Shown here: positions 4,488 through 64,000 of the stretch, in pieces
How positions within the stretch are numbered: the first letter of the stretch is position 1
Layout: each line of letters starts with the position of its first letter
NCBI GenBank assembly: GCA_022561055.1
Contig: JADFRY010000004.1
Location: 35,243 to 99,242 of the forward strand
Length of the DNA: 64,000 nucleotides
DNA from: Nanobdellota archaeon
GTDB taxonomy: Archaea; Nanobdellota; Nanobdellia; Pacearchaeales; GW2011-AR1
Direction of reading: 5' to 3'
Notes under the pieces: model-generated
Databases searched by the model: none
What the model was told of the DNA's origin: nothing
Seen by the model: the letters and a program-made list of their open reading frames with translations, nothing else
Translations under genes and position numbers: made by a program

Positions 4488-5078
4488 CTAGGCAAGAGTA
4501 GGCTGGTTAGAAGTTAATTTATAGTATGCTTCTCGGTCACTTAGTCTTTCTCTAGCTCTTTTTAAGAAGCCAGATAGCCTTGATTTTACTGTTCCTAATG
4601 GGATGTTTAATTGATCTGCTACTACTGCTAGAGTGGCTCCATAAAGATAATGTAATCTTACTATTTCTGTTTGATTTGGAGTACATAAGATGTCTATCAG
4701 ACTTTCTATTCTTTTTCCAGATCCTTCTTGGGTTGGTTTATTTTCTGAGATTGATTCACCCATGAATGATTCGTCTAAACTTTTAGCAGATATTCTAGAT
4801 TTTCTTCTTCTTACCATGTCTATCCCAACTGACCTGGTTAACATTTTAACATAAGCTGTTAGTTTTGCTCTCTTTGGATCGTATTTGTCAAAGCCACATG
4901 GTCTAAGAGATTTCATTGTTACTTCTTGCCCTAATTCTTCAGGATCTATAGAAAATAATCTTGCATATCGATTAAATATTGGCTCAAAGGCTTCTCTAAA
5001 TTTACAATAAGCCGAATTGCTTTCGGCTGTGCCAGTTATTACAGCCCTTTTTACGTCTTCTTCTGTGAAAATTACCAT
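4488..5078 (-). CDS. sigma-70 family (ECF-like) protein
   Basis: Region-4 HTH NQTEIVRLHYLYGATLAVVADQLNIPLGTVKSRLSGFLKRARERL, and a region-2-like FEPIFNRYARLF...DPEELGQEV...AYVKMLTRSVGIDMVRRRK. Confidence 0.7.
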   Translation of the reverse strand: MVIFTEEDVKRAVITGTAESNSAYCKFREAFEPIFNRYARLFSIDPEELGQEVTMKSLRPCGFDKYDPKRAKLTAYVKMLTRSVGIDMVRRRKSRISAKSLDESFMGESISENKPTQEGSGKRIESLIDILCTPNQTEIVRLHYLYGATLAVVADQLNIPLGTVKSRLSGFLKRARERLSDREAYYKLTSNQPTLA

Positions 5079-7203: not shown

Positions 7204-7240
7204 GCTTTTATTAAAGGAGTAAGATATAAAAAAGTTGTTA

Positions 7241-7527
7241 TGTCAAGGATTCTGGAGAGAACCACTTACTTTAGTGCGTGGATGAATCCTTGAGCACAAG
7301 AGAATTGCTCCAAGCTTTGCAATTCTCTGTGCAGAAAATTCTCTATTAAAAGAATTTTCTTGCATCCAAACCTCAAGAATGCTAACAATTGCATTCCGGG
7401 AGAATTCTCTAACATGAATTCTCCGGACCCGCGAATCCAAACTTACGAGGATTCGCACGGTCTTGATGGCACTCAAAAACTAAAAGTTTTTGATGAGTCC
7501 GAACAAAAAACGCAAAGACTTTTTGAT
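7241..7527 (+). repeat. multi-hairpin repeat element, expanded copy (candidate structured sRNA or MITE)
   Basis: Shares its 5' end and an identical 66-nt 3' end with copy 48003..48198. It carries extra palindromic modules at 7396-7426 and 7431-7456, plus a loop-1 insertion. Confidence 0.8.
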
Positions 7528-7580
7528 TAGTCTAATAATACATTCCAAATAATTTACTGTTAATTTAATTAAAGAGATTT

Positions 7581-8684
7581 TTATCCAAATCTAATCTCTC
7601 CCCCACCCAAGACTTGTTCGCCTTTATATATGACTGCTGATTGTCCTTCTGCAATTCCTTCTATTGATTTTTTGAGTGTGCAATTATATTTTTTATTATT
7701 ATATTCTATCGAAACAGGAATTAGTTCACCGAGATGTCTGATTCTTACTTTTATTTTAGTGAGAGGAAATTTTGGCCGGTCATTTATGAAATTTATTTTT
7801 CTCATTATGAATTTTTTGCGGAATGCTTCAGGATGATTCTTAGGAGCTGCGATTAATATGTTGCTTTTTATTTTTTTGTTAATTATATACCATTTTTTTC
7901 CAGTTTTATTTCTAAATTCTTTATCAATATCGAAACCGAGTCGTGGTCCTATTCTTTCGCCAATTGTGTAAAACATTGTTCCATTATGATAGCCAAGAAG
8001 CTTTCCTTCAGGGTTTAGGATTTTCCCTTTTTTTTGTTTTATTTTTTGTTTTAAAAATGCTTTCATATTTACTTTTCCAATAAAACAAATTCCCTTTGTT
8101 CCTGGTTTATTATAATTTGGAAAGTTGTTTTTATAAGCTATTTTTCTTATTTCTTTTTTTGTATAGTTTCCTATGGGGAATAATGTATGTGCGAGGTCTT
8201 TTTGAGTTAATTCATATAGAAAATATGATTGGTCTTTTGTTTTGTCCTTTGCTTTTAAGAGAGAGAAACTGGATTTAGTTTTTTTTATTTTTGCGTAATG
8301 TCCTGTCGCTATGTAGCTTGCTCCGAGTTTTTTTGCTTCTGTCCAAAGAAAGGGGAATTTTATTATTTTATTACATAAAGAGTCGGGATTAGGTGTTAAG
8401 CTGCGAGCATAAGCTTTAAACATTGGATCAATTACATATTTCTTATATTCTTTTTCGAAATTTAATGTTATAAAAGGGATTTTAAGAATTGCAGCTATTT
8501 TTTGGGCGTCTTTTTTGTCATTAACCCAATTACACTGGCCAGTTATTTTGTCTTTCGTTTCAGAGAAATTTTTCATGAAAGCTCCTATAACTTTGTATCC
8601 TTGTTTTTTAAGAAGAAGCGCAGCTACGGTAGAGTCTACTCCTCCTGAAAGACCGAGGAGGATAGTTTCTTGTTTTTGTTTCAT
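7581..8684 (-). CDS. mnmA: tRNA-specific 2-thiouridylase MnmA
   Basis: PP-loop LSGGVDSTVAA, catalytic Cys contexts NPDSLCNKIIKF and KGICFIG, 367 aa. Confidence 0.9.
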   Translation of the reverse strand: MKQKQETILLGLSGGVDSTVAALLLKKQGYKVIGAFMKNFSETKDKITGQCNWVNDKKDAQKIAAILKIPFITLNFEKEYKKYVIDPMFKAYARSLTPNPDSLCNKIIKFPFLWTEAKKLGASYIATGHYAKIKKTKSSFSLLKAKDKTKDQSYFLYELTQKDLAHTLFPIGNYTKKEIRKIAYKNNFPNYNKPGTKGICFIGKVNMKAFLKQKIKQKKGKILNPEGKLLGYHNGTMFYTIGERIGPRLGFDIDKEFRNKTGKKWYIINKKIKSNILIAAPKNHPEAFRKKFIMRKINFINDRPKFPLTKIKVRIRHLGELIPVSIEYNNKKYNCTLKKSIEGIAEGQSAVIYKGEQVLGGGEIRFG

Positions 8685-8718: not shown

Positions 8719-8841
8719 CGTCCCGGGCTGGACTCGAACCAACGACCCCACGGTTTCTGAAATCTGCCGATTTCCGAGCAGATCAAAAATTGGCATTTTT
8801 AATCTTAACAGCCGTGTGCTCTACCACTGAGCTACCGGGAC
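8719..8841 (-). tRNA. tRNA-Asn(GUU) with a ~51-nt intron in the anticodon loop
   Basis: Reverse complement folds by hand as GTCCCGG-TA-GCTC-AGTGGTA-GAGC-A-CACGG-CTGTTAA-[intron]-CCGTG-GGGTC-GTTGG-TTCGAGT-CCAGC-CCGGGAC-G. No encoded CCA. Confidence 0.85.
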
Positions 8842-8905
8842 TTAGAGAAAAAAACGGGTGAGCTTATTTAAAGATTCCTGTCTTGATTTTTGAGTTGTAA
8901 GATCA

Positions 8906-9103
8906 TGTCAAGATGCTTTCGAAAGAGCATCTTGAACACAAGAGAATTGCTGACAATTGCAATTCTCTGCGCAGAAAATTCTCTATTAAAAGAATTTTCT
9001 TGCATCCTAACCTCAAGAATGCTTAAAAGTTGCATTCTTGAGGGCATTCAAAAACTTTCAGTTTTTGATGAGTCCTAACAAAAAACGACAAGGACTTTTT
9101 GAT
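8906..9103 (+). repeat. multi-hairpin repeat element, copy 2
   Basis: Collinear with 48003..48198. Hairpin 1 stem is changed on both arms (caagatgct/agcatcttg versus caaggattc/gaatccttg). Confidence 0.8.
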
Positions 9104-9331: not shown

Positions 9332-9505
9332 ATGAACATGGTAGCAAGAAGAGCAACTACAGGAAGAACAACAAGAAGAGCAACTACAGGAAGAACAACA
9401 AGAAGAGCAACTACAGGAAGAACAACAAGAGAGACAACAAGAACAACAAGAGAGACAACAAGAAGAACAACGGCAAGAAGAGCAACTACAAGAAGGAGAA
9501 GATAA
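9332..9505 (+). CDS. 57-aa Arg/Thr-repeat peptide
   Basis: Encodes MNMVARRATTGRTTRRATTGRTTRRATTGRTTRETTRTTRETTRRTTARRATTRRRR. GAGGT precedes it, with a second in-frame ATG at 9338. Stop is TAA, followed by a T-run. Confidence 0.45.
   Translation: MNMVARRATTGRTTRRATTGRTTRRATTGRTTRETTRTTRETTRRTTARRATTRRRR
9347..9427 (+). repeat. 3 x 27-bp perfect tandem repeat (agaagagcaactacaggaagaacaaca)
   Basis: Units at 9347, 9374 and 9401 are identical by direct reading. They encode the RRATTGRTT repeats. Confidence 0.9.
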
Positions 9506-9639
9506 CTCTTTTTTGAAATAGTTTTTCTTTGAATATAATATTTTTTGTTTGTTTTAATGTGGAATATTAATTTATCGATGGTAAATAATTGATAATTTGT
9601 TATTGTTTTATTGATAATTATATTTTAACGACGATAAAC

Positions 9640-9653: not shown

Positions 9654-9692
9654 CTTATTATAGTTCGTTTTTTTTTGCATAGGAGACATACA

Positions 9693-9794
9693 ATGACAAC
9701 AAAAAGAAAAACAAGAAGAACAAGAAAAACTGCAAGAAAGACAGTAAGAAAAACAACCAGAAGAAAGACAACCGTCAGAAGAAAAAGAAGATAA
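9693..9794 (+). CDS. 33-aa Lys/Arg/Thr peptide
   Basis: Encodes MTTKRKTRRTRKTARKTVRKTTRRKTTVRRKRR. GGAG lies 7 nt upstream. Stop is TAA, followed by a T-run. Confidence 0.45.
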   Translation: MTTKRKTRRTRKTARKTVRKTTRRKTTVRRKRR

Positions 9795-18343: not shown

Positions 18344-18587
18344 TTATTCTATTTTAATTAAATGCTGATGGGGTAAATTAAGTATAGCAACCTCACAGTC
18401 CACTGCCCGACTAACTCGACCACTCAGTTCTCATCATTAAATAACAATACTAAACTGGATAGTTTCACCCACCACGAAGTATCAGGTAATATGAGTCATG
18501 AAGGTGGAGGGGATTTGGTTGGAGATGATAATAGTGGTGTTGAGTCATAATTGAGCTTTGTATATTTTACTGTTTCTAAATAAAAAT

Positions 18588-19691
18588 TTATTCCAATGCA
18601 AATCTAAGTATTACACCCACACCCTTTGTGATGTTGTAAAATTGTTCTCCTTCTTCGGTTTCTGTTGATATTATGACAATTTTAGAACCGATGTTTTCTG
18701 CTTTTTTTTCTAGTTCTTCTGTTTTTTTTGGTTGCTCCTTTGCAAAGACTTTGGATATTAATAAGATTTCTACTGCGCCCCTTTCTAAGGCCGTTTCTAC
18801 TTTATCTTTTTTATAAGCTGCTTTGTCAGGTTCTTTGCCGAGGATATTGAAAAATCTTTCGAGTATTTTTTTCTCTTTTATTATTTCTTGTTCTGCTAGA
18901 TTTTCTTGCGAGGATTCTACTAAGAGGTCTAGACCATGTTCGTCAGCATATCCTATATCTTTGACTGCGATGACTTTTTCTTTTAGTTTTGTGACTAGAT
19001 GGCCTTCTTCTAAGAATTCTTCTTTTGTTGGTATTGGCCCTCCGATGAGGAGACCTTTTAATCGTGGCATGTCAAAGAATATTTCTTTCATTGCTTCTGC
19101 CACTCTTCTGAAAAATTCTTTCGCTAATCCCTCGGTAATTCTATAAAATCTTTGTGCCGATTGGCCCCCTGCCTTTATTTTTCCTGGGACACCAGAAGTT
19201 AATTTTCTGAGTACTTTAATTTGTTTTCCTTCTAATAAACCTATTGTAGCTTCTTTTCTGTCTATTGCTAGCAAGCCGTAAATTTCCTTGGTCTGGAGTA
19301 TTTCTTTTAAGGGCTCTAAAACAAAACTTTGGTCACAACGGTACATTCGGACATTTAAAGGACTTGGCGGTTCTATTGTCCAGAGTTCTATGTCTTGAGT
19401 GCCTTCTTTTTGAGAGACGTTTCCTGCAAATAGTGCTAAGCCATTTTTTGGAGTCTTTTTATAATTTTTTAATTCCCTGATTATTCTTTCTAAGGAATCA
19501 ATGACAGCGGTTCGTGTTTGTTTTGATTTAATATTAGCTGCAGTTGATTTTTCTGATTCTAGTTGTTTTGTTACAGTATTGATATTGAAACCTACTGGTA
19601 TCATAACCGTGACTAGCTCGGTATGTCTGCCTTTAATGGCTTCTAGTTCTTCAATCGTTACTTCAAGTTTTAATTTTTCTTTTTCGTCCAT
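18588..19691 (-). CDS. prf1: peptide chain release factor aRF1
   Basis: NIKS motif (AANIKSKQTR) and GGQ motif (KAGGQSAQRF). ATG at 19691 is preceded by GGAGGT. Confidence 0.9.
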   Translation of the reverse strand: MDEKEKLKLEVTIEELEAIKGRHTELVTVMIPVGFNINTVTKQLESEKSTAANIKSKQTRTAVIDSLERIIRELKNYKKTPKNGLALFAGNVSQKEGTQDIELWTIEPPSPLNVRMYRCDQSFVLEPLKEILQTKEIYGLLAIDRKEATIGLLEGKQIKVLRKLTSGVPGKIKAGGQSAQRFYRITEGLAKEFFRRVAEAMKEIFFDMPRLKGLLIGGPIPTKEEFLEEGHLVTKLKEKVIAVKDIGYADEHGLDLLVESSQENLAEQEIIKEKKILERFFNILGKEPDKAAYKKDKVETALERGAVEILLISKVFAKEQPKKTEELEKKAENIGSKIVIISTETEEGEQFYNITKGVGVILRFALE

Positions 19692-22722: not shown

Positions 22723-23337
22723 ATGAACAAAAAACAATACTTCTTAAAAATCTTTAAAAAAGTGCAGAAGAAATATGGAGATGAGGATAAAAGGCTTGCT
22801 GCTGAAGGTTGGGGTCCTCCATGGAGAACTTTGGTTGTTACAATAATGTCTGCGCAATCCCGTGATGAGACTACTATTTCAATCGCTGAGAAATTATTTA
22901 AAAAATATCCGAAATTGGAAAACTTAGCAAAGGCTAAGTTTTCAGATGTATTGAAGATATTGAAAAGTATGAATTATAATAGGACTAAGAGTAGGAATGT
23001 TATAGAGGCTGCTAAAATGTTAGTTAATGAGTTTAAAGGAAAAGTGCCAAGGAATATTGATGAGCTTGTTAAGATTCCTGGTGTTGGTCGCAAAACCGCC
23101 AATTTAGTTTTATCTGAAGTTTATGGCGAGGACACAATAACTATAGACACCCATTGTCACCGGATACCTAATGCTATAGGATTGGTTAAAACTAAAACTC
23201 CTATGGAAACAGAGCTGGCTTTACAAAAAATAGTACCTAAAAAGTATTGGAATCGTATTAATCGTTTGTTTGTTCTTTGGGGTAAAGATTGTCTCGGGCA
23301 TGACAAGAAAAAATTATTGGCTAAGCTTGATGAGTGA
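22723..23337 (+). CDS. nth: endonuclease III-like HhH-GPD DNA glycosylase (no Fe-S cluster motif seen)
   Basis: HhH IPGVGRKTANLVL with catalytic Lys, DTHCHRI Asp. No C-terminal Cx6Cx2Cx5C. Confidence 0.8.
   Translation: MNKKQYFLKIFKKVQKKYGDEDKRLAAEGWGPPWRTLVVTIMSAQSRDETTISIAEKLFKKYPKLENLAKAKFSDVLKILKSMNYNRTKSRNVIEAAKMLVNEFKGKVPRNIDELVKIPGVGRKTANLVLSEVYGEDTITIDTHCHRIPNAIGLVKTKTPMETELALQKIVPKKYWNRINRLFVLWGKDCLGHDKKKLLAKLDE
23296..23337. repeat. proximal copy of the duplicated nth 3' end
   Basis: Encodes GHDKKKLLAKLDE*. Compare 24395..24448, which encodes GRDKERLLKKLEEGKDV*. Confidence 0.65.
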
Positions 23338-24316
23338 TTATTAAATCTAGTTTACTTTCTTTTTTAGGTGAGGTGAATCCTATTTTCTTTCTAAATAGTT
23401 TCAAGTTTTCTTCTTTACTAATATTAAAATAATATCTCTTTTTATCTCCCTTTATATAACATTTGATTTCTCTAGGAATTATATTAAATTCTTTTAGTAA
23501 TGTTCTAAAATCTTCTAGTATATCAACTCTGTCTTGAAATATTCTGATATATCTGCTTTTAATATCAACTGTGGCTTCATCATCAAAGAACGCCCTGATT
23601 AATCCTTTTTTGAATTCACTATTAGCAGCCAGTATTTTTTTAGTTATTCTTTTATTTTTCCCTACTGCAAAATTATCAAAAATAGAGTTAAGGAGTAGCC
23701 CACAAATAGATGGATAAAAAAGCCCGCAATTTCTTCCATATTCTAATTCATCTATATTATTTAATCTTTTATCCCATTTAGTGTTTCCGAAATCTGGAGA
23801 TTTCTGCATCCAGATTCTTGGCTTTATGCTAAATATTTCTCTCATATGGTCCTTGAATTCATGTAGCAGAAATTTATCAGAATTTGAAAAGGATATTTGC
23901 TGATATTTTTTATCTATAGCGCCATCACCTAATATATGCCCCACTATTGTTCCAAGGTTCTTGTTTATTTTTATGGGAAAATTAGGTTTAATTTCTCCTT
24001 TCTTTTGCCCTGCTTTAATAGAAAAAATATTTGATTCTACTTCTTTCCAACTAACCCTAGAAAGCTTTATGATTTTAGCTAATTTGTTTAGTGGTATTGT
24101 TTTTTCATATGTGGTCCATCCATATATTGTTTTACAATGGTCTCTATTTTTTGTAAACTTCATTCCTAATTGAATAATTAATTTTTTATTATAGTGCGGT
24201 TTATCATCTTTGGCAGCCTTTACAAGAAGTTCTTTTAAAAATAGCTTATCCATTTTTGTGTGAAAATACCCAAAATCATTCACAAAGTCTTCCAATCCAA
24301 ACCTCTCTTTTTTCAT
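23321..24316 (-). CDS. LAGLIDADG-family homing endonuclease (double-motif)
   Basis: Two LAGLIDADG-type motifs, LGTIVGHILGDGAI and GLIRAFFDDEATV. ATG at 24316 (24331 is TTG). Confidence 0.8.
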   Translation of the reverse strand: MKKERFGLEDFVNDFGYFHTKMDKLFLKELLVKAAKDDKPHYNKKLIIQLGMKFTKNRDHCKTIYGWTTYEKTIPLNKLAKIIKLSRVSWKEVESNIFSIKAGQKKGEIKPNFPIKINKNLGTIVGHILGDGAIDKKYQQISFSNSDKFLLHEFKDHMREIFSIKPRIWMQKSPDFGNTKWDKRLNNIDELEYGRNCGLFYPSICGLLLNSIFDNFAVGKNKRITKKILAANSEFKKGLIRAFFDDEATVDIKSRYIRIFQDRVDILEDFRTLLKEFNIIPREIKCYIKGDKKRYYFNISKEENLKLFRKKIGFTSPKKESKLDLIITHQA

Positions 24317-24394
24317 TATTAACGAAGGCAACCAATATATTTATACTTTTCTATAACTCATGTTCATAGATTTTTTAAAAGAAAGGAAGTTCCT
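23338..24394 (-). mobile_element. free-standing LAGLIDADG homing-endonuclease cassette
   Basis: Segment bounded by the two copies of the nth terminus. It contains a single LAGLIDADG ORF on the opposite strand. Confidence 0.6.
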
Positions 24395-32281: not shown

Positions 32282-32403
32282 GCGTTGTTAGTATAGTGGC
32301 AGAATGCAAGCTTCCCAACTACAACCTTTAAAAAAGGTTCTAGGAGTCCAAAACGGCTTTATGGAAAAAGCTTGAGACGCGGGTTCGATTCCCGCACAGC
32401 GCA
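32282..32403 (+). tRNA. tRNA-Gly(CCC) with a ~51-nt intron in the anticodon loop
   Basis: Hand fold is GCGTTGT-TA-GTAT-AGTGGCA-GAAT-G-CAAGC-TTCCCAA-[intron]-GCTTG-AGAC-GCGGG-TTCGATT-CCCGC-ACAGCGC-A. The D-stem is weak. Confidence 0.7.
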
Positions 32404-35670: not shown

Positions 35671-36141
35671 TTAATCGTCTCCTCCCCCTCCCTGGTCTGC
35701 TGCTGCTGGTTCTCTGACCTTGTCAGTCATCGTTCCTGTCGATGTTAAGTCAAGAGCGCTACCTGCTTTTCTGTATGTTATTGTTATGTCGGCTTTAAAA
35801 TTGTCTCCAGAACCTTGTCCTGTGCATAAGATAGTTATAGTGTCCATCGAGCCAGAAGGAATTGTCACACACAATATTGCTCGTGCCACAACTAACTCCT
35901 GATGGAAGGTTACTGAGTTGAGTGTAGCTTCTATACTAGTATATGTCTCTTCACCACTATTTCTTATCTCTATTTTTACGTTATTCGTGTCTACGCTCCA
36001 GGCATTTGCATGAAAAGGCGGGGATAATATTGTTGCTGCTGGTGAATATTGTCCTGGCGTGAAAACACCGAAGTACGCGAGTACGCCAATTGCAATGATT
36101 GCTGCCAGGATAGCCCAGCCATAAGTCATCAAGAACTCCAT
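35671..36141 (-). CDS. archaeal type IV pilin-like protein, paralog A (no start codon for a leader peptide)
   Basis: MEFLMTYGWAILAAIIAIGVLAYFGVF hydrophobic N-terminus, identical to paralog B. The in-frame upstream ..RKARGQAA has no ATG/GTG/TTG. Confidence 0.65.
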   Translation of the reverse strand: MEFLMTYGWAILAAIIAIGVLAYFGVFTPGQYSPAATILSPPFHANAWSVDTNNVKIEIRNSGEETYTSIEATLNSVTFHQELVVARAILCVTIPSGSMDTITILCTGQGSGDNFKADITITYRKAGSALDLTSTGTMTDKVREPAAADQGGGGDD

Positions 36142-36475: not shown

Positions 36476-36952
36476 TTAACCACCAGCTACAACTTTCTCA
36501 GTTATAGAGCCTGTCGATGTTAAGTCAAGAGCGCTACCTGATTTTCTGTATGTTATTGTTATATCACCTTTGAAATTGTCTCCTTCTGCTAGAGCAGTAG
36601 GGCCACACGGAGTAATTGCAAAGCTACTTGCATTGCCTGCAGCCATGATGAAATCAACAGGAGTAATTGTAGCACAGTTTTCAACATCAATTGATATTAT
36701 GGTAAAGGCCTCACCACCGTTATTTCTTAACTCTAGATTTACAGCATTAGCGGTTGCTTGTACGTTCCACGCATTAACATAGAAAGGTGCGGTGACTATT
36801 GCAGAGCCTCCTACAAATTTTCCTGGCGTGAAAACACCGAAGTACGCGAGTACGCCAATTGCAATGATTGCTGCCAGGATAGCCCAGCCATAAGTCATCA
36901 AGAACTCCATGGCTGCTTGCCCTTTTTTATCTTGCAGTCTCTTTATGTGCAT
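36476..36952 (-). CDS. archaeal type IV pilin-like protein, paralog B (class III signal peptide)
   Basis: MHIKRLQDKKGQAAMEFLMTYGWAILAAIIAIGVLAYFGVF, that is a basic leader, G/Q site and hydrophobic helix. Confidence 0.8.
   Translation of the reverse strand: MHIKRLQDKKGQAAMEFLMTYGWAILAAIIAIGVLAYFGVFTPGKFVGGSAIVTAPFYVNAWNVQATANAVNLELRNNGGEAFTIISIDVENCATITPVDFIMAAGNASSFAITPCGPTALAEGDNFKGDITITYRKSGSALDLTSTGSITEKVVAGG
36821..36919. repeat. 99-nt block identical to 36052..36150
   Basis: Compared base by base. Confidence 0.9.
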
Positions 36953-47976: not shown

Positions 47977-48002
47977 GCATTTATAAAAATTATGATGGAT
48001 TA

Positions 48003-48198
48003 TGTCAAGGATTCTGGAGAAAGAATCCTTGAACACAAGAGAATTGCTTACAATTGCAATTCTCTGTGCAGAAAATTCCTTTCAGGAGGAATTTTCTTGC
48101 ATCCAAACCTCAAGAATGCTAACAATTGCATTCTTGATGGCACTCAAAAACTAAAAGTTTTTGATGAGTCCGAACAAAAAACGCAAAGACTTTTTGAT
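48003..48198 (+). repeat. multi-hairpin repeat element, compact copy (candidate structured sRNA or MITE)
   Basis: Hairpins at 48006-48031, 48038-48065, 48068-48100, 48111-48136 and 48144-48164, plus an A/T-clamped tail ending in a T-run. Confidence 0.8.
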
Positions 48199-48254
48199 GT
48201 TAGGACAAATTTCTATTTGAAAAGATTTAAAAACCGTTTTCCTTAGTTTTAGTC

Positions 48255-56495: not shown

Positions 56496-57011
56496 ATGAC
56501 AAAAGAAAGAGTAGCCATTTTTATTGATGGAAGTAATCTTTATCACAATCTGAAAAGATTCAATATAAAAACTACTTTTGAAGAAATAATAAAGAGAGTA
56601 GAAACTCAGAGACAAGTTGTCGATATTTTTTATTATACTGCTTTATTGGATAAATCAATAAATGAAGAAAGATACGAAGAACATAGAAGATTTTTAGAGA
56701 AAATAAAGAAGATTTCAAATTTTCATGTTGTTCTTTGCAATTTAAGAAAAGTGATTTTAGAAGACGGCTCTGTTGATTTTACAATAAAAGGCGATGATGT
56801 TTATTTAGCCGTTGATTTGGTTTCAGGTGCTTACGAAGATTTATATGATGTCGCCATAATTGTTTCTGGAGATGCAGATTTTATTCCCGCAATAAAACTT
56901 GTTCAAAAAAATGGTAAAAAGGTCATCAATGCTTTCTTTCCAAAAAGTTCTTCTTATCTCCTTAGAAATTGTTGTGATGGTTCAATAAATTTAAAGAAAG
57001 CTTTATTATAA
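56496..57011 (+). CDS. NYN/LabA-like (PIN-related) domain protein
   Basis: VAIFIDGSNLYH and IIVSGDADFIPAI. Confidence 0.8.
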   Translation: MTKERVAIFIDGSNLYHNLKRFNIKTTFEEIIKRVETQRQVVDIFYYTALLDKSINEERYEEHRRFLEKIKKISNFHVVLCNLRKVILEDGSVDFTIKGDDVYLAVDLVSGAYEDLYDVAIIVSGDADFIPAIKLVQKNGKKVINAFFPKSSSYLLRNCCDGSINLKKALL

Positions 57012-57205: not shown

Positions 57206-58111
57206 GGGGGTCACTTAATGATCTAACAAAAGTGATTCAAACTTTACATTAAATTCCTTTTCTAAGAAAGTTAACGTTTTCTTTTGATTTTGAAGGGATG
57301 CCTTTATCAGTGGTGTTGTGAACATATCTGATTTTTTTGACCATTTTGCATCTTTTTTTTCAACTGATTCTATCCATTCTACTTTCAGAACATATTCTGA
57401 TTTTTCATTATCCGAATTTACAAACATATCTCTACATGTTAATGGAATTTGATGTAACGATTGATTTTTATATCTAAAATTGTTAATACGAATTGCTTTC
57501 TCTACTACTTTACCAATGCCAACATATCCATATTTTTTGAGGTACGCTACAATTACATCTCCTATTTCAAGTGTTTTTAATGGGTCGCTATATTGCTTGC
57601 CTTGTCCAGCGGATAAGAACTCATATTTACGACAATCTTTCCAAGAACGATTTTTCCCTTCTCCTATGTTTACATAGTAAATTCCGTTTTGATAGTCAAA
57701 TCCAAATAGCCTTTGGTGGAACGTGTCGTGTGGTCTGAATTTGTCTGCAAATTTTCCAGATGATATGTTTGTTAGATTCCTCCCCAACTTCCAAATTAAT
57801 GTTTTTTCAACTAAAAACGCCTCTTGTTCGGTTAAATTTTTAGCAATTACTTTTACTATAGGATCTTCTTCAGCTTTTTCTATTGCCTTAATTATTTTGC
57901 CTTTTTCAGTATCACTATCATCTCTTAAATGAGCTTCTTTACGATTTCCTTTCCCTTTCCCATAGTAGAATTCTTCAAAATTTCTAGGGTCAATATAAAC
58001 GTATACATAATATTCATTATCCTTTTTCATAAATGCTTTATTGTTCTCACATTTAAATATTTTTTCTAAGATAATAATAGTAAAATATACTTTACACTAA
58101 ATTCCAATAGT
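57206..58111 (-). mobile_element. free-standing GIY-YIG endonuclease cassette
   Basis: Segment bounded by the 42-nt imperfect direct repeats. It contains only the GIY-YIG ORF. Confidence 0.6.
57215..58030 (-). CDS. GIY-YIG nuclease domain protein with uncharacterised C-terminal domain
   Basis: YYVYVYIDPRNFEEFYYGKGKGNRKEAH (GIY-x10-YIG plus Arg), downstream EQEAFLVEKTLI. C-terminal ~170 aa are unassigned. Confidence 0.75.
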   Translation of the reverse strand: MKKDNEYYVYVYIDPRNFEEFYYGKGKGNRKEAHLRDDSDTEKGKIIKAIEKAEEDPIVKVIAKNLTEQEAFLVEKTLIWKLGRNLTNISSGKFADKFRPHDTFHQRLFGFDYQNGIYYVNIGEGKNRSWKDCRKYEFLSAGQGKQYSDPLKTLEIGDVIVAYLKKYGYVGIGKVVEKAIRINNFRYKNQSLHQIPLTCRDMFVNSDNEKSEYVLKVEWIESVEKKDAKWSKKSDMFTTPLIKASLQNQKKTLTFLEKEFNVKFESLLLDH

Positions 58112-62473: not shown

Positions 62474-64000
62474 ATGGTGCATAAAAAATATATTAAGCAG
62501 GGTAAAAGGAAATATGGGCCCTATCTATATGAAACTAAAAGAGTCAATGGTAGAGTTATAACAACTTATATTGGGAAAGTAAATGAAAAGAAAAGAAAAT
62601 TTGCTTTTTATTATCTTTTTCTTGGTTTACTTTTAGTTCTCTTACTTTTATTTTTATTTTTTCCAGTGAGTTTTACAGGATATGTTATTTCTGATAATTC
62701 TGAAGTTAAGGATACTGCTGATTTAGAGGCAATAAGAGAAAGTAAATCTATAGAAAAAGCGAAAATACAAAATAAAGTTGTTAAAGTTGTAGGAGTGATA
62801 GATAGCACCGAAACAACGCAATACGATGCTATTTTAGGAAAACCAGTAAAGTGGAGAAAAAATGTTAAATTATCGAGTCCAGGAATTGTTTCTATTGCCA
62901 TTCCATTGAGCGCAGTAAACATTTCTATTGTGAAAATTATCAGAGTTAATAAGACAATTGCTCAAGCAGGTAATAGAAATATTAATGCAACTTCTAACAA
63001 ACCCGATAAGATTACTAATAAGTCTAGTGTTATAATTGCTAAGAATAAATCTGAGCAAGATGCTGACGAACATGATTTTACAGATGCTCAGGAAGAAGTA
63101 GTGATAGGGGATACAGATGTTCAGGAAGAAGTATTGATTGAAGAAGAAGAAATAAAGGAAAAAACAGAGGAGAAATCTGAGGAAGAAAGCGAATCTGAAG
63201 AGTTTGATGAAAATATTGTTTCTGAATTAGGGAATTTAATAATTAATAATGTTTTCGTTAGTTTTTTTAATCGTTTTGTTAGATTTACAGGTCTTACAAT
63301 TATAGGAGATGAAATTGTTGTTAAACAGGATAAACAAATAATCGAAATTAATGAAATTGTTGAAGAAGTTGAAATTGAGTATTATACTGATGCTCCTTAT
63401 GTAGTTGAAGAAGCAATAGAAAATGGGAAAAGAGTTCAAATTATAGGACCAGAAGATGTTCATTATGAAAATGTTTTAGCTTTTACTAAATTAAGTGAGA
63501 GTTTGAATGTTAGAAATCCTTCACAAGTAAAAATTTATTGGGTGGAAAATAATACTTATATTTCTCATTTGAATATTATTGATAATAATAAAAATGGAAT
63601 TTACGATTATATCGAATGGATTGCTCCTTTTTTAAGTAACCAAACTTTCAATATAATTGTTATAACAAAAGCAGAGCATTTGGATGAAAATAGAACTTTC
63701 ATAAGTGATGTTTTCAAAGAAGTAAGAGAACTTGATGGAATTTGGAGCGAAACTATTCCAAATACACATTATGTTAGAGTTACTTTTGAAATTAATCTTA
63801 CTTCTGATAGAGATATTACTTTATATCCGAGGACTGTTTCAGGGACGCCGAGGATTGAAGTTTATGAAATTAATGGTAATAAATTAATTGCTGAGTTTAC
63901 TTCTCTTATTGATAATCAATATAATAAAGTTTTCTTGACGAATTTACAAGGCTCTCAAGATACTTTTGATTTACTTATTCTTGATGGGGATATTGAATTT
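62474..64000 (+). CDS. large membrane-anchored surface protein, 5' part (runs off the window)
   Basis: Not in the ORF track. Hand translation from ATG 62474 shows no stop through 64000 (509 codons). It has a basic N-terminus, the TM segment FAFYYLFLGLLLVLLLLFLFF, an acidic linker, then a beta-rich Asn-rich region. Confidence 0.65.
   Translation, partial: MVHKKYIKQGKRKYGPYLYETKRVNGRVITTYIGKVNEKKRKFAFYYLFLGLLLVLLLLFLFFPVSFTGYVISDNSEVKDTADLEAIRESKSIEKAKIQNKVVKVVGVIDSTETTQYDAILGKPVKWRKNVKLSSPGIVSIAIPLSAVNISIVKIIRVNKTIAQAGNRNINATSNKPDKITNKSSVIIAKNKSEQDADEHDFTDAQEEVVIGDTDVQEEVLIEEEEIKEKTEEKSEEESESEEFDENIVSELGNLIINNVFVSFFNRFVRFTGLTIIGDEIVVKQDKQIIEINEIVEEVEIEYYTDAPYVVEEAIENGKRVQIIGPEDVHYENVLAFTKLSESLNVRNPSQVKIYWVENNTYISHLNIIDNNKNGIYDYIEWIAPFLSNQTFNIIVITKAEHLDENRTFISDVFKEVRELDGIWSETIPNTHYVRVTFEINLTSDRDITLYPRTVSGTPRIEVYEINGNKLIAEFTSLIDNQYNKVFLTNLQGSQDTFDLLILDGDIEF

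Follow-up and report, generated by a model that had tools for sequence, protein, structure and literature searches.

A previously undescribed family of modular multi-hairpin repeats in intergenic DNA of Pacearchaeota

The window analyzed here, a stretch of 64,000 nt from a Nanobdellota archaeon contig, carries three copies of a multi-hairpin repeat that is a real, previously undescribed family; a literature search found no description of it. Compensatory substitution preserves the stems of the repeat, and entire hairpins have been gained or lost, duplicated, nested, or turned around; the copies occupy intergenic sites that are not orthologous, and close relatives lack them at the same sites. 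With moderate confidence, we read the repeat as a non-autonomous, modular, non-coding insertion element of Pacearchaeota (DPANN), resembling BOX or REP/BIME repeats. The best named matches of the mnmA and L15e genes of the source contig, an ENA scaffold of 81.4 kb, are in Candidatus Pacearchaeota.

Copies in the window and in related contigs

The focal copy (48002–48198, + strand, 197 nt) begins with ATGTCA, comprises hairpins H1–H6, and ends in GACTTTTTGAT. The second copy (7240–7527, +, 288 nt) is the focal copy with a 23-nt hairpin added at the tip of H1 (7261–7283) and a 66-nt two-hairpin insertion inside the 3′ arm of H4 (7395–7460). In the third (8905–9103, +, 199 nt), the whole stem of H1 is changed by compensatory substitutions (GATGCT/AGCATC). 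The initial annotation, made from the sequence alone, had placed three intergenic copies on one strand with starts at 7241, 8906, and 48003; the copies are real, share a strand, and are all intergenic, and their exact starts lie one base earlier. Their neighbors are also as it described them, namely mnmA and a nitroreductase gene, an intron-bearing tRNA gene with anticodon GTT, and L15e.

R1, a covariance model built for the 3′ core, scores 101 bits on the core of the focal copy and was run over the window with filters off. The scan, of a kind that the initial annotation had proposed, returns only these three copies in the window and further ones in the loci of relatives; it detects none in the 17 kb by which the source contig extends beyond the window, and the density is three copies in 81 kb.

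Relatives were gathered by DNA-pattern scans requiring 21 exact bases and then by R1. The family so assembled has ~20 copies at at least 17 loci in Pacearchaeota/Nanoarchaeota contigs from groundwater and sediment, across several samples: a Nanoarchaeota MAG from Hainich groundwater (L011, L035), other Hainich contigs (L016, L121, L122, L130, L131), and JGI contigs (L123–L129), with further copies found by R1 at L122 7309–7497, L011 ~1965–2201, and L133 18540–18636 and a relic copy at L133 7131–7209. In a 16-mer scan of GTDB genomes the matches listed are mostly chance, pattern scans of IMG/VR give nothing or one chance match inside a coding region, and phage and plasmid collections contain no match to the repeat. 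One repeat-bearing contig, L016 (JBBTVE010000004.1, 1276 bp), comes from the same Hainich sample and has been assigned to a Patescibacteria bin; it is probably a mis-binned fragment carrying the archaeal repeat. In L133, the relic adjoins a split reverse transcriptase gene (7240–8518, two ORFs matching RVT_1 positions 8–106 and 134–204); AAC-rich DNA immediately precedes this gene, and the arrangement resembles a diversity-generating retroelement.

Copy length ranges from 89 to 376 nt by whole-hairpin differences. The 5′ terminus is constant, ATGTCA(A/C)G followed by H1 and GA(A/G)CA, with ATACAGAG in that place in one lineage, and so is the 3′ terminus, GAGTCC...GGACTTTTTGAT (elsewhere given as GAGTCC...CAAGGACTTTTTGAT). 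Between the termini every hairpin is optional, and copies hold from 0 to 8 or more. The window copies, L123, and L127 contain H2 and H3; L124, L126, L129, L130, and L131 (119–171 nt) lack them, and the minimal L133 copy (18540–18636; given as 89 nt) consists of H1 and the combined P0/H6 stem only, without H4 and H5. GC-rich mini-hairpins of the form AAACC-ACNCC-loop-GGNGT-GGTAAAAC are gained and lost at the tips of H1 and H6. Rearrangement of modules goes further: four are nested in the loop of a tip hairpin in L011b, a block is inverted in L016, and L122 carries a tandem duplication of the H4-H2-H3 block relative to the same locus in L011, so that module number is polymorphic. In L128, ~80 nt downstream of a full copy, two tandem 51-nt units (2041–2142, −) each end in the 3′ module GGTAAAACGAAAGGACTTTGTGAT.

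The repeat does not code for protein. The 84-aa ORF at the focal copy (47992..48246), already suspected to be spurious in the initial annotation, is indeed so, the copies differing by indels of 23 and 66 nt. The ORF that starts at the conserved ATG varies from 4 to 116 aa depending on the copy, and on these grounds, together with the indels, coding potential was rejected; no conserved ORF was found among the copies. A protein database search with the 84-aa ORF as bait returned one similar protein, at a locus that had already been found.

The repeat also lies outside known RNA families, as the initial annotation had supposed. At the gathering threshold of Rfam only tRNAs pass in the window, permissive searches of the repeat give at best 9.6–13.9 bits (E > 5), and the hammerhead, C/D, H/ACA, IS605-orfB, and HEARO models show no match to it. 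A hammerhead reading was rejected: UGAUGAGUCC...GGAC resembles stem II, but C3 and the GAAA core are missing.

Several other features of the window were recorded. Two tRNA genes of ~122 nt with introns, at 8719–8841 (−) and 32282–32403 (+), are found by Rfam and missed by ARAGORN; the first reads by eye as tRNA-Asn (anticodon GTT). An AAC/AAG-rich tandem repeat with a period of ~27 nt lies to the right of copy 8905 (9332–9512 and 9690–9783), within a 750-nt gene-poor gap, and overlaps a 70-aa K/N-rich ORF. A 196-aa protein encoded at 4488–5078 (−) matches Sigma70 region 4 (E 4e-8) and, weakly, region 2, which is unusual for an archaeal contig. Adjacent paralogues of ~156 aa (35671–36141 and 36476–36952, −) share 86–88% DNA identity, and the gene at 62474–64000 (+), which runs off the end of the window into L139, encodes a protein of 1732 aa for which Pfam records no entry.

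Fold, covariation, and the long-range helix P0

The + strand of the focal copy opens with the 5′ terminal hairpin H1 (48005..48032), whose arms, 48006–48015 and 48022–48031, read TCAAGGATTCT and AGAATCCTTGA. Two optional modules follow, H2 (48038–48047/48056–48065) and H3 (48068–48079/48088–48100), which has a bulged T. Together they form a block (48034..48100, +) inserted at GAGCA|TCC, and both follow the general module plan of stem, one-base bulge, and 3-bp clamp. The 3′ domain (48101..48198, +) comprises H4 (48108–48140, arms 48111–48119/48128–48136), H5 (48144–48164, arms 48144–48151/48157–48164), H6 (48166–48192), in which GAGTCC pairs with GGACTT, and a long-range helix, P0, that pairs 48101–48106 with 48193–48198 on the + strand. 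In P0, the terminal UUUGAU pairs with AUCCAAA, a linker lying between H1 and H4, thereby closing H4, H5, and H6 into a four-way junction with H6 stacked on P0; in the minimal L133 copy, P0 and H6 fold as one continuous hairpin.

All five stems that had been drawn by eye in the initial annotation are perfect stems and lie at exactly its coordinates. Its sixth, a clamp between an A-run and a T-run, is not a conserved pairing, the A-run being missing in relatives or split by insertion of a GC-rich hairpin; H6 and P0 take its place. The T-run at the 3′ end, which had been likened to a terminator, is one strand of P0 and not a free tail.

The minimum free energy of the focal copy is −81.3 kcal/mol, compared with −41.7 ± 4.0 kcal/mol in dinucleotide shuffles (z = −10.0). 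In a composite alignment built from 12 copies, a small set that the search pattern biases, pairing holds in 96.5% of cells, and both sides have changed in eight pairs. None of 500 shuffles reaches the observed covariation score, and slid registers drop to 29–56% paired. Double compensatory changes affect 6 of the 10 pairs of H1 among the 12 copies, and compensatory pairs are also seen in H4. Helix P0 has one compensatory change, from A-U to C-G: L125 and L128 end in TTTGTG, and their linkers carry the matching C. This change is the reason why an alternative C/D-like K-turn (UGA|GUCC with GGAC-U5-GAU) was dropped in favor of P0. Hairpin H5 shows one compensatory change, TCAAAGAC/GTCTTTGA, in L122b (L122 7309–7497); its otherwise invariant appearance is an artifact, because the search pattern demanded those bases.

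Covariation of this kind, a distant helix that closes the domain, conserved loops and junctions rich in A, and variable hairpin tips are all typical of functional RNAs, and the initial annotation had preferred a family of independently transcribed structured sRNAs. The product would be a + strand RNA of ~120–380 nt, made of H1 and the four-way junction and acting in trans, for example as a protein-binding platform. By a hand count, G-U pairs outnumber A-C appositions ~7 to 2 in the consensus helices, a leaning toward RNA that is equivocal, because the folding program yields spurious G-U pairs on either strand; the fold energies of the two strands do not set them apart either. Against an sRNA, H4 and H5, the most conserved hairpins, are dispensable in the minimal L133 copy, modules are nested and inverted, and copies are not syntenic. 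A T5 run tends to terminate archaeal RNA polymerase, and the internal T5 of H5 would tend to do so within the proposed transcript. These features, and the promoter positions described below, make this reading very unlikely in our estimation.

Promoters, gene context, and empty sites

Promoter geometry was calibrated on 109 protein genes from the window, L133, L126, L129, L011, L122, L141, and L142. The starts of TATA-like hexamers are tightly concentrated between −30 and −27 relative to the ATG, with 94 matches in that bin and at most 9 in any other 2-nt bin, and the mRNAs are therefore mostly leaderless. The repeat shows no such regularity: a hexamer occupies the gene-like position in only 1 of 19 copies (L126, at −27), 9 of the 19 lack any TATA-like hexamer over the scanned upstream DNA of up to 60 nt, and the remaining copies have boxes at −10 to −23. 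The copy in L125 lies directly against the stop codon of the upstream gene.

The TATA-like boxes that had been noted beside all three window copies are present in the sequence; their position is wrong for promoters of the repeat, and two of the three serve divergent genes. The hexamer beside copy 7240 (7225..7230, −) is 27 nt upstream of the nitroreductase ATG (7203), at promoter spacing, and is therefore the promoter of that gene and not of the repeat. The hexamer beside copy 8905 (8867..8872, −) precedes the 5′ end of tRNA-Asn (8841) by 31 nt. For the box TTTATAAAAA (47980..47989, +), situated 13–22 nt upstream of the focal copy, no other client gene is obvious, and this otherwise unemployed box is a point in favor of an sRNA. 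However, it is 7–9 nt too close, such that transcription would start 7–9 nt inside H1, and the relative L144, in which the site is empty, has two TATA-like boxes in the same spacer between the pilin-like gene and L15e. The repeat is without a promoter of its own; promoter position, the paired T-run, and the lack of synteny all weigh against independently transcribed sRNAs.

A second alternative is that the repeat is a cis element of benefit to the host, an array that ends or insulates the transcripts on either side or protects mRNA 3′ ends, its spread being secondary. Both strands are suited to such a role: the minus strand of the focal copy folds equally well against shuffles (z = −9.4), and runs of T5–T6 are present on both strands. 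All three window copies lie downstream of the 3′ end of some gene (mnmA at 53 nt, a pilin-like gene at 25 nt, KH at 755 nt). The T-runs vary, however, with GTCTTTGA in H5 of L122b and TTTGTG at the 3′ ends of L125 and L128, and a symmetric terminator role leaves the conserved asymmetric termini unexplained. Of 11 loci with two classifiable neighbors, eight are in tandem contexts, none is convergent, and three are between divergent genes, where no transcript arrives. In the tandem contexts, four copies run along the gene direction and four against it; orientation is thus unrelated to transcription of the neighbors.

The closest L15e relative, L144/L145 (82% identical), has the same order of a 176-aa gene, two pilin-like genes, and L15e; its pilin–L15e spacer is 76 nt, versus 25 + 197 + 56 nt in the window (81 nt without the repeat). 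In L141 (mnmA 72%) and L142 (mnmA 69%), the order eIF1A-KH-...-mnmA-nitroreductase-FtsZ is kept, and the mnmA–nitroreductase gap, 53 + 288 + 36 nt in the window, is 34 nt in L142 and 20 + 50 nt around an extra gene in L141. A scan with R1 over ~64 kb of these empty-site relatives detects no copy in L141 or L142 and reaches at best an unconvincing 15.6 bits (E 0.09) in L144–L147. Because the sites are empty in syntenic relatives at both loci tested, the window copies at these loci are clean, lineage-specific insertions. For a host-beneficial cis element, it is an adverse finding that the same gene pairs manage in close relatives with spacers of 34–76 nt and no repeat.

Sequence conservation bears on the same alternative. 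In the 3′ core, the focal copy shares 87% identity with copy 8905, 92% with a Hainich copy, and 84% with L128, figures that are inflated by a search requiring 21 exact bases; the L15e genes of L128 and the window share 75% DNA identity. The core is thus better conserved between lineages than L15e DNA, which may reflect selection for a host function. That a within-genome value (87%) is lower than a between-genome value (92%) does not fit the pattern of a recent burst, and the conservation suggests either constraint or exchange between lineages. A cis element of this sort is compatible with the insertion-element explanation; as the primary account of the repeat, we judge it unlikely.

Mobility and likeness to known elements

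Terminal inverted repeats are absent, the 5′ end ATGTCAAG mismatching the reverse complement of the 3′ end, ATCAAAAAG, and all copies have the same asymmetric ends. Target-site duplications, proposed in the initial annotation as a mark of transposition, do not occur between the left and right flanks of 19 copies. There is no conserved target motif (left flanks read GGATT, TTGTT, AGATC, GAGTT, TTACG, etc.), and beyond a T at position −1, shared by 12 of 15 copies, the flanks show no preference. The alternative that the initial annotation had entertained, a MITE or REP-like element, is closer to the evidence than its sRNA reading, although the inverted repeats and duplications that define MITEs are absent.

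Pfam lists of the 81-kb contig contain no transposase, RAYT, TnpB, or integrase, and neither tnpA nor tnpB is present at the other loci examined. A search of these loci for a parent element, in the form of unpaired 5′ and 3′ ends separated by an ORF, gave only noise. Together with the missing target motif and duplications, the small number of copies in the contig, the identity values within and between genomes, and the equivocal strand comparison, these negatives weigh against the insertion-element reading that we favor. Genes of mobile or toxin type in the 81-kb contig encode a LAGLIDADG endonuclease, a GIY-YIG protein, an NYN nuclease, and a ParE toxin; the segments ~23321–24331 (−), 57215–58030 (−), and 56496–57011 (+) hold free-standing genes for LAGLIDADG_3 and GIY-YIG (LEM-3) proteins and a gene for an NYN-domain nuclease. 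An integron attC/cassette reading, prompted by pairs of copies that flank single genes, was rejected because mnmA and its neighbors are syntenic core genes.

The architecture is, by description, close to that of BOX of Streptococcus pneumoniae (boxA-boxB(n)-boxC). Like BOX, the repeat is non-coding, intergenic, and ~100–400 bp long, with constant ends, variable internal modules, a predicted stable structure, and no encoded transposase. Unlike BOX, it closes a multi-branch domain by pairing its 3′ end with a linker inside the repeat, and its modules can nest in one another's loops. The host here is an archaeon, and membership of BOX is not claimed. The REP/BIME and REPIN elements of bacteria, which are mobilized by RAYT, share with the repeat short, bulged, extragenic palindromes of 25–35 nt with a conserved foot (CAAG...CTTG in the repeat), the assembly of units in mosaics, hairpins kept by compensatory change, and possible side effects on termination or mRNA stability. 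The repeat differs from them in the asymmetric termini, ATGTCA ... GGACTTTTTGAT, that enclose its array, in the absence of a RAYT from the 81-kb contig, and in its modest density of three copies in 81 kb. The RepRanger paper reports REP-like palindromes in archaea and does not mention DPANN (PMC12306157). With archaeal and bacterial MITEs, the repeat has in common that it is small, non-coding, multi-copy, intergenic, and present or absent between relatives; it departs from them in lacking terminal inverted repeats and target-site duplications, and no related IS with the same ends was found at the loci examined.

A third alternative derives the repeat from an IS200/IS605-type element, as a PATE-like orphan guide-RNA or end fragment that carries an omega-RNA scaffold; its right end would be ...TTGAT, and the DNA beside it would act as guide. 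The PATEs and omega-RNAs of these elements resemble the repeat in having no terminal inverted repeats or target-site duplications, a strand-specific architecture, and hairpins near both ends. Extrahelical bases matter for TnpA recognition in IS608, and each hairpin of the repeat has a one-base bulge. However, the left end shows no fixed target of 4–5 nt, tnpA and tnpB are missing from the 81-kb contig and from the other loci examined, the IS605- and HEARO-type models of Rfam are without a match, and no bias in orientation relative to the replication strand is seen by GC skew (12 positive versus 7 negative, the copies not being independent). We consider this origin highly improbable.

The plan of the repeat is a constant 5′ module, zero to many interchangeable hairpins, and a constant 3′ module. 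Under the insertion-element explanation, spread would occur by insertion of a folded single strand, through an ssDNA or RNA intermediate, with the terminal hairpins recognized by a trans-acting enzyme not encoded nearby. Selection would then keep the structure and the termini because the folded single strand would be the substrate for spread, and an inserted copy would be transcribed by read-through only. Given stable hairpins and T5–T6 runs on both strands, a copy would probably act as an incidental two-way transcript end or insulator between packed genes; such a secondary role is plausible and is not required by the explanation. A more radical reading, which we consider quite unlikely, is that the repeat represents a new DPANN mobile unit, either a hairpin array, free of terminal inverted repeats, target-site duplications, and a fixed target, whose modules copy into each other's loops and which is moved by an enzyme acting on folded ssDNA or RNA, or a mobile structured RNA that acts in trans.

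The genomes of DPANN archaea are very small and gene-dense, and little is known of their non-coding DNA and mobile elements. In such genomes, a conserved and structured modular repeat costing 120–380 bp per copy is unexpected baggage, and it inserts cleanly into spacers of ~34–80 nt. The repeat can serve to track strain-level variation and horizontal exchange among Pacearchaeota, is likely to break assemblies and to misplace contigs during binning, and gives a handle for finding the enzyme that would recognize its terminal hairpins. The TATA calibration, with its leaderless mRNAs and very regular promoter geometry, provides in addition a precise promoter ruler that aids annotation of these genomes.
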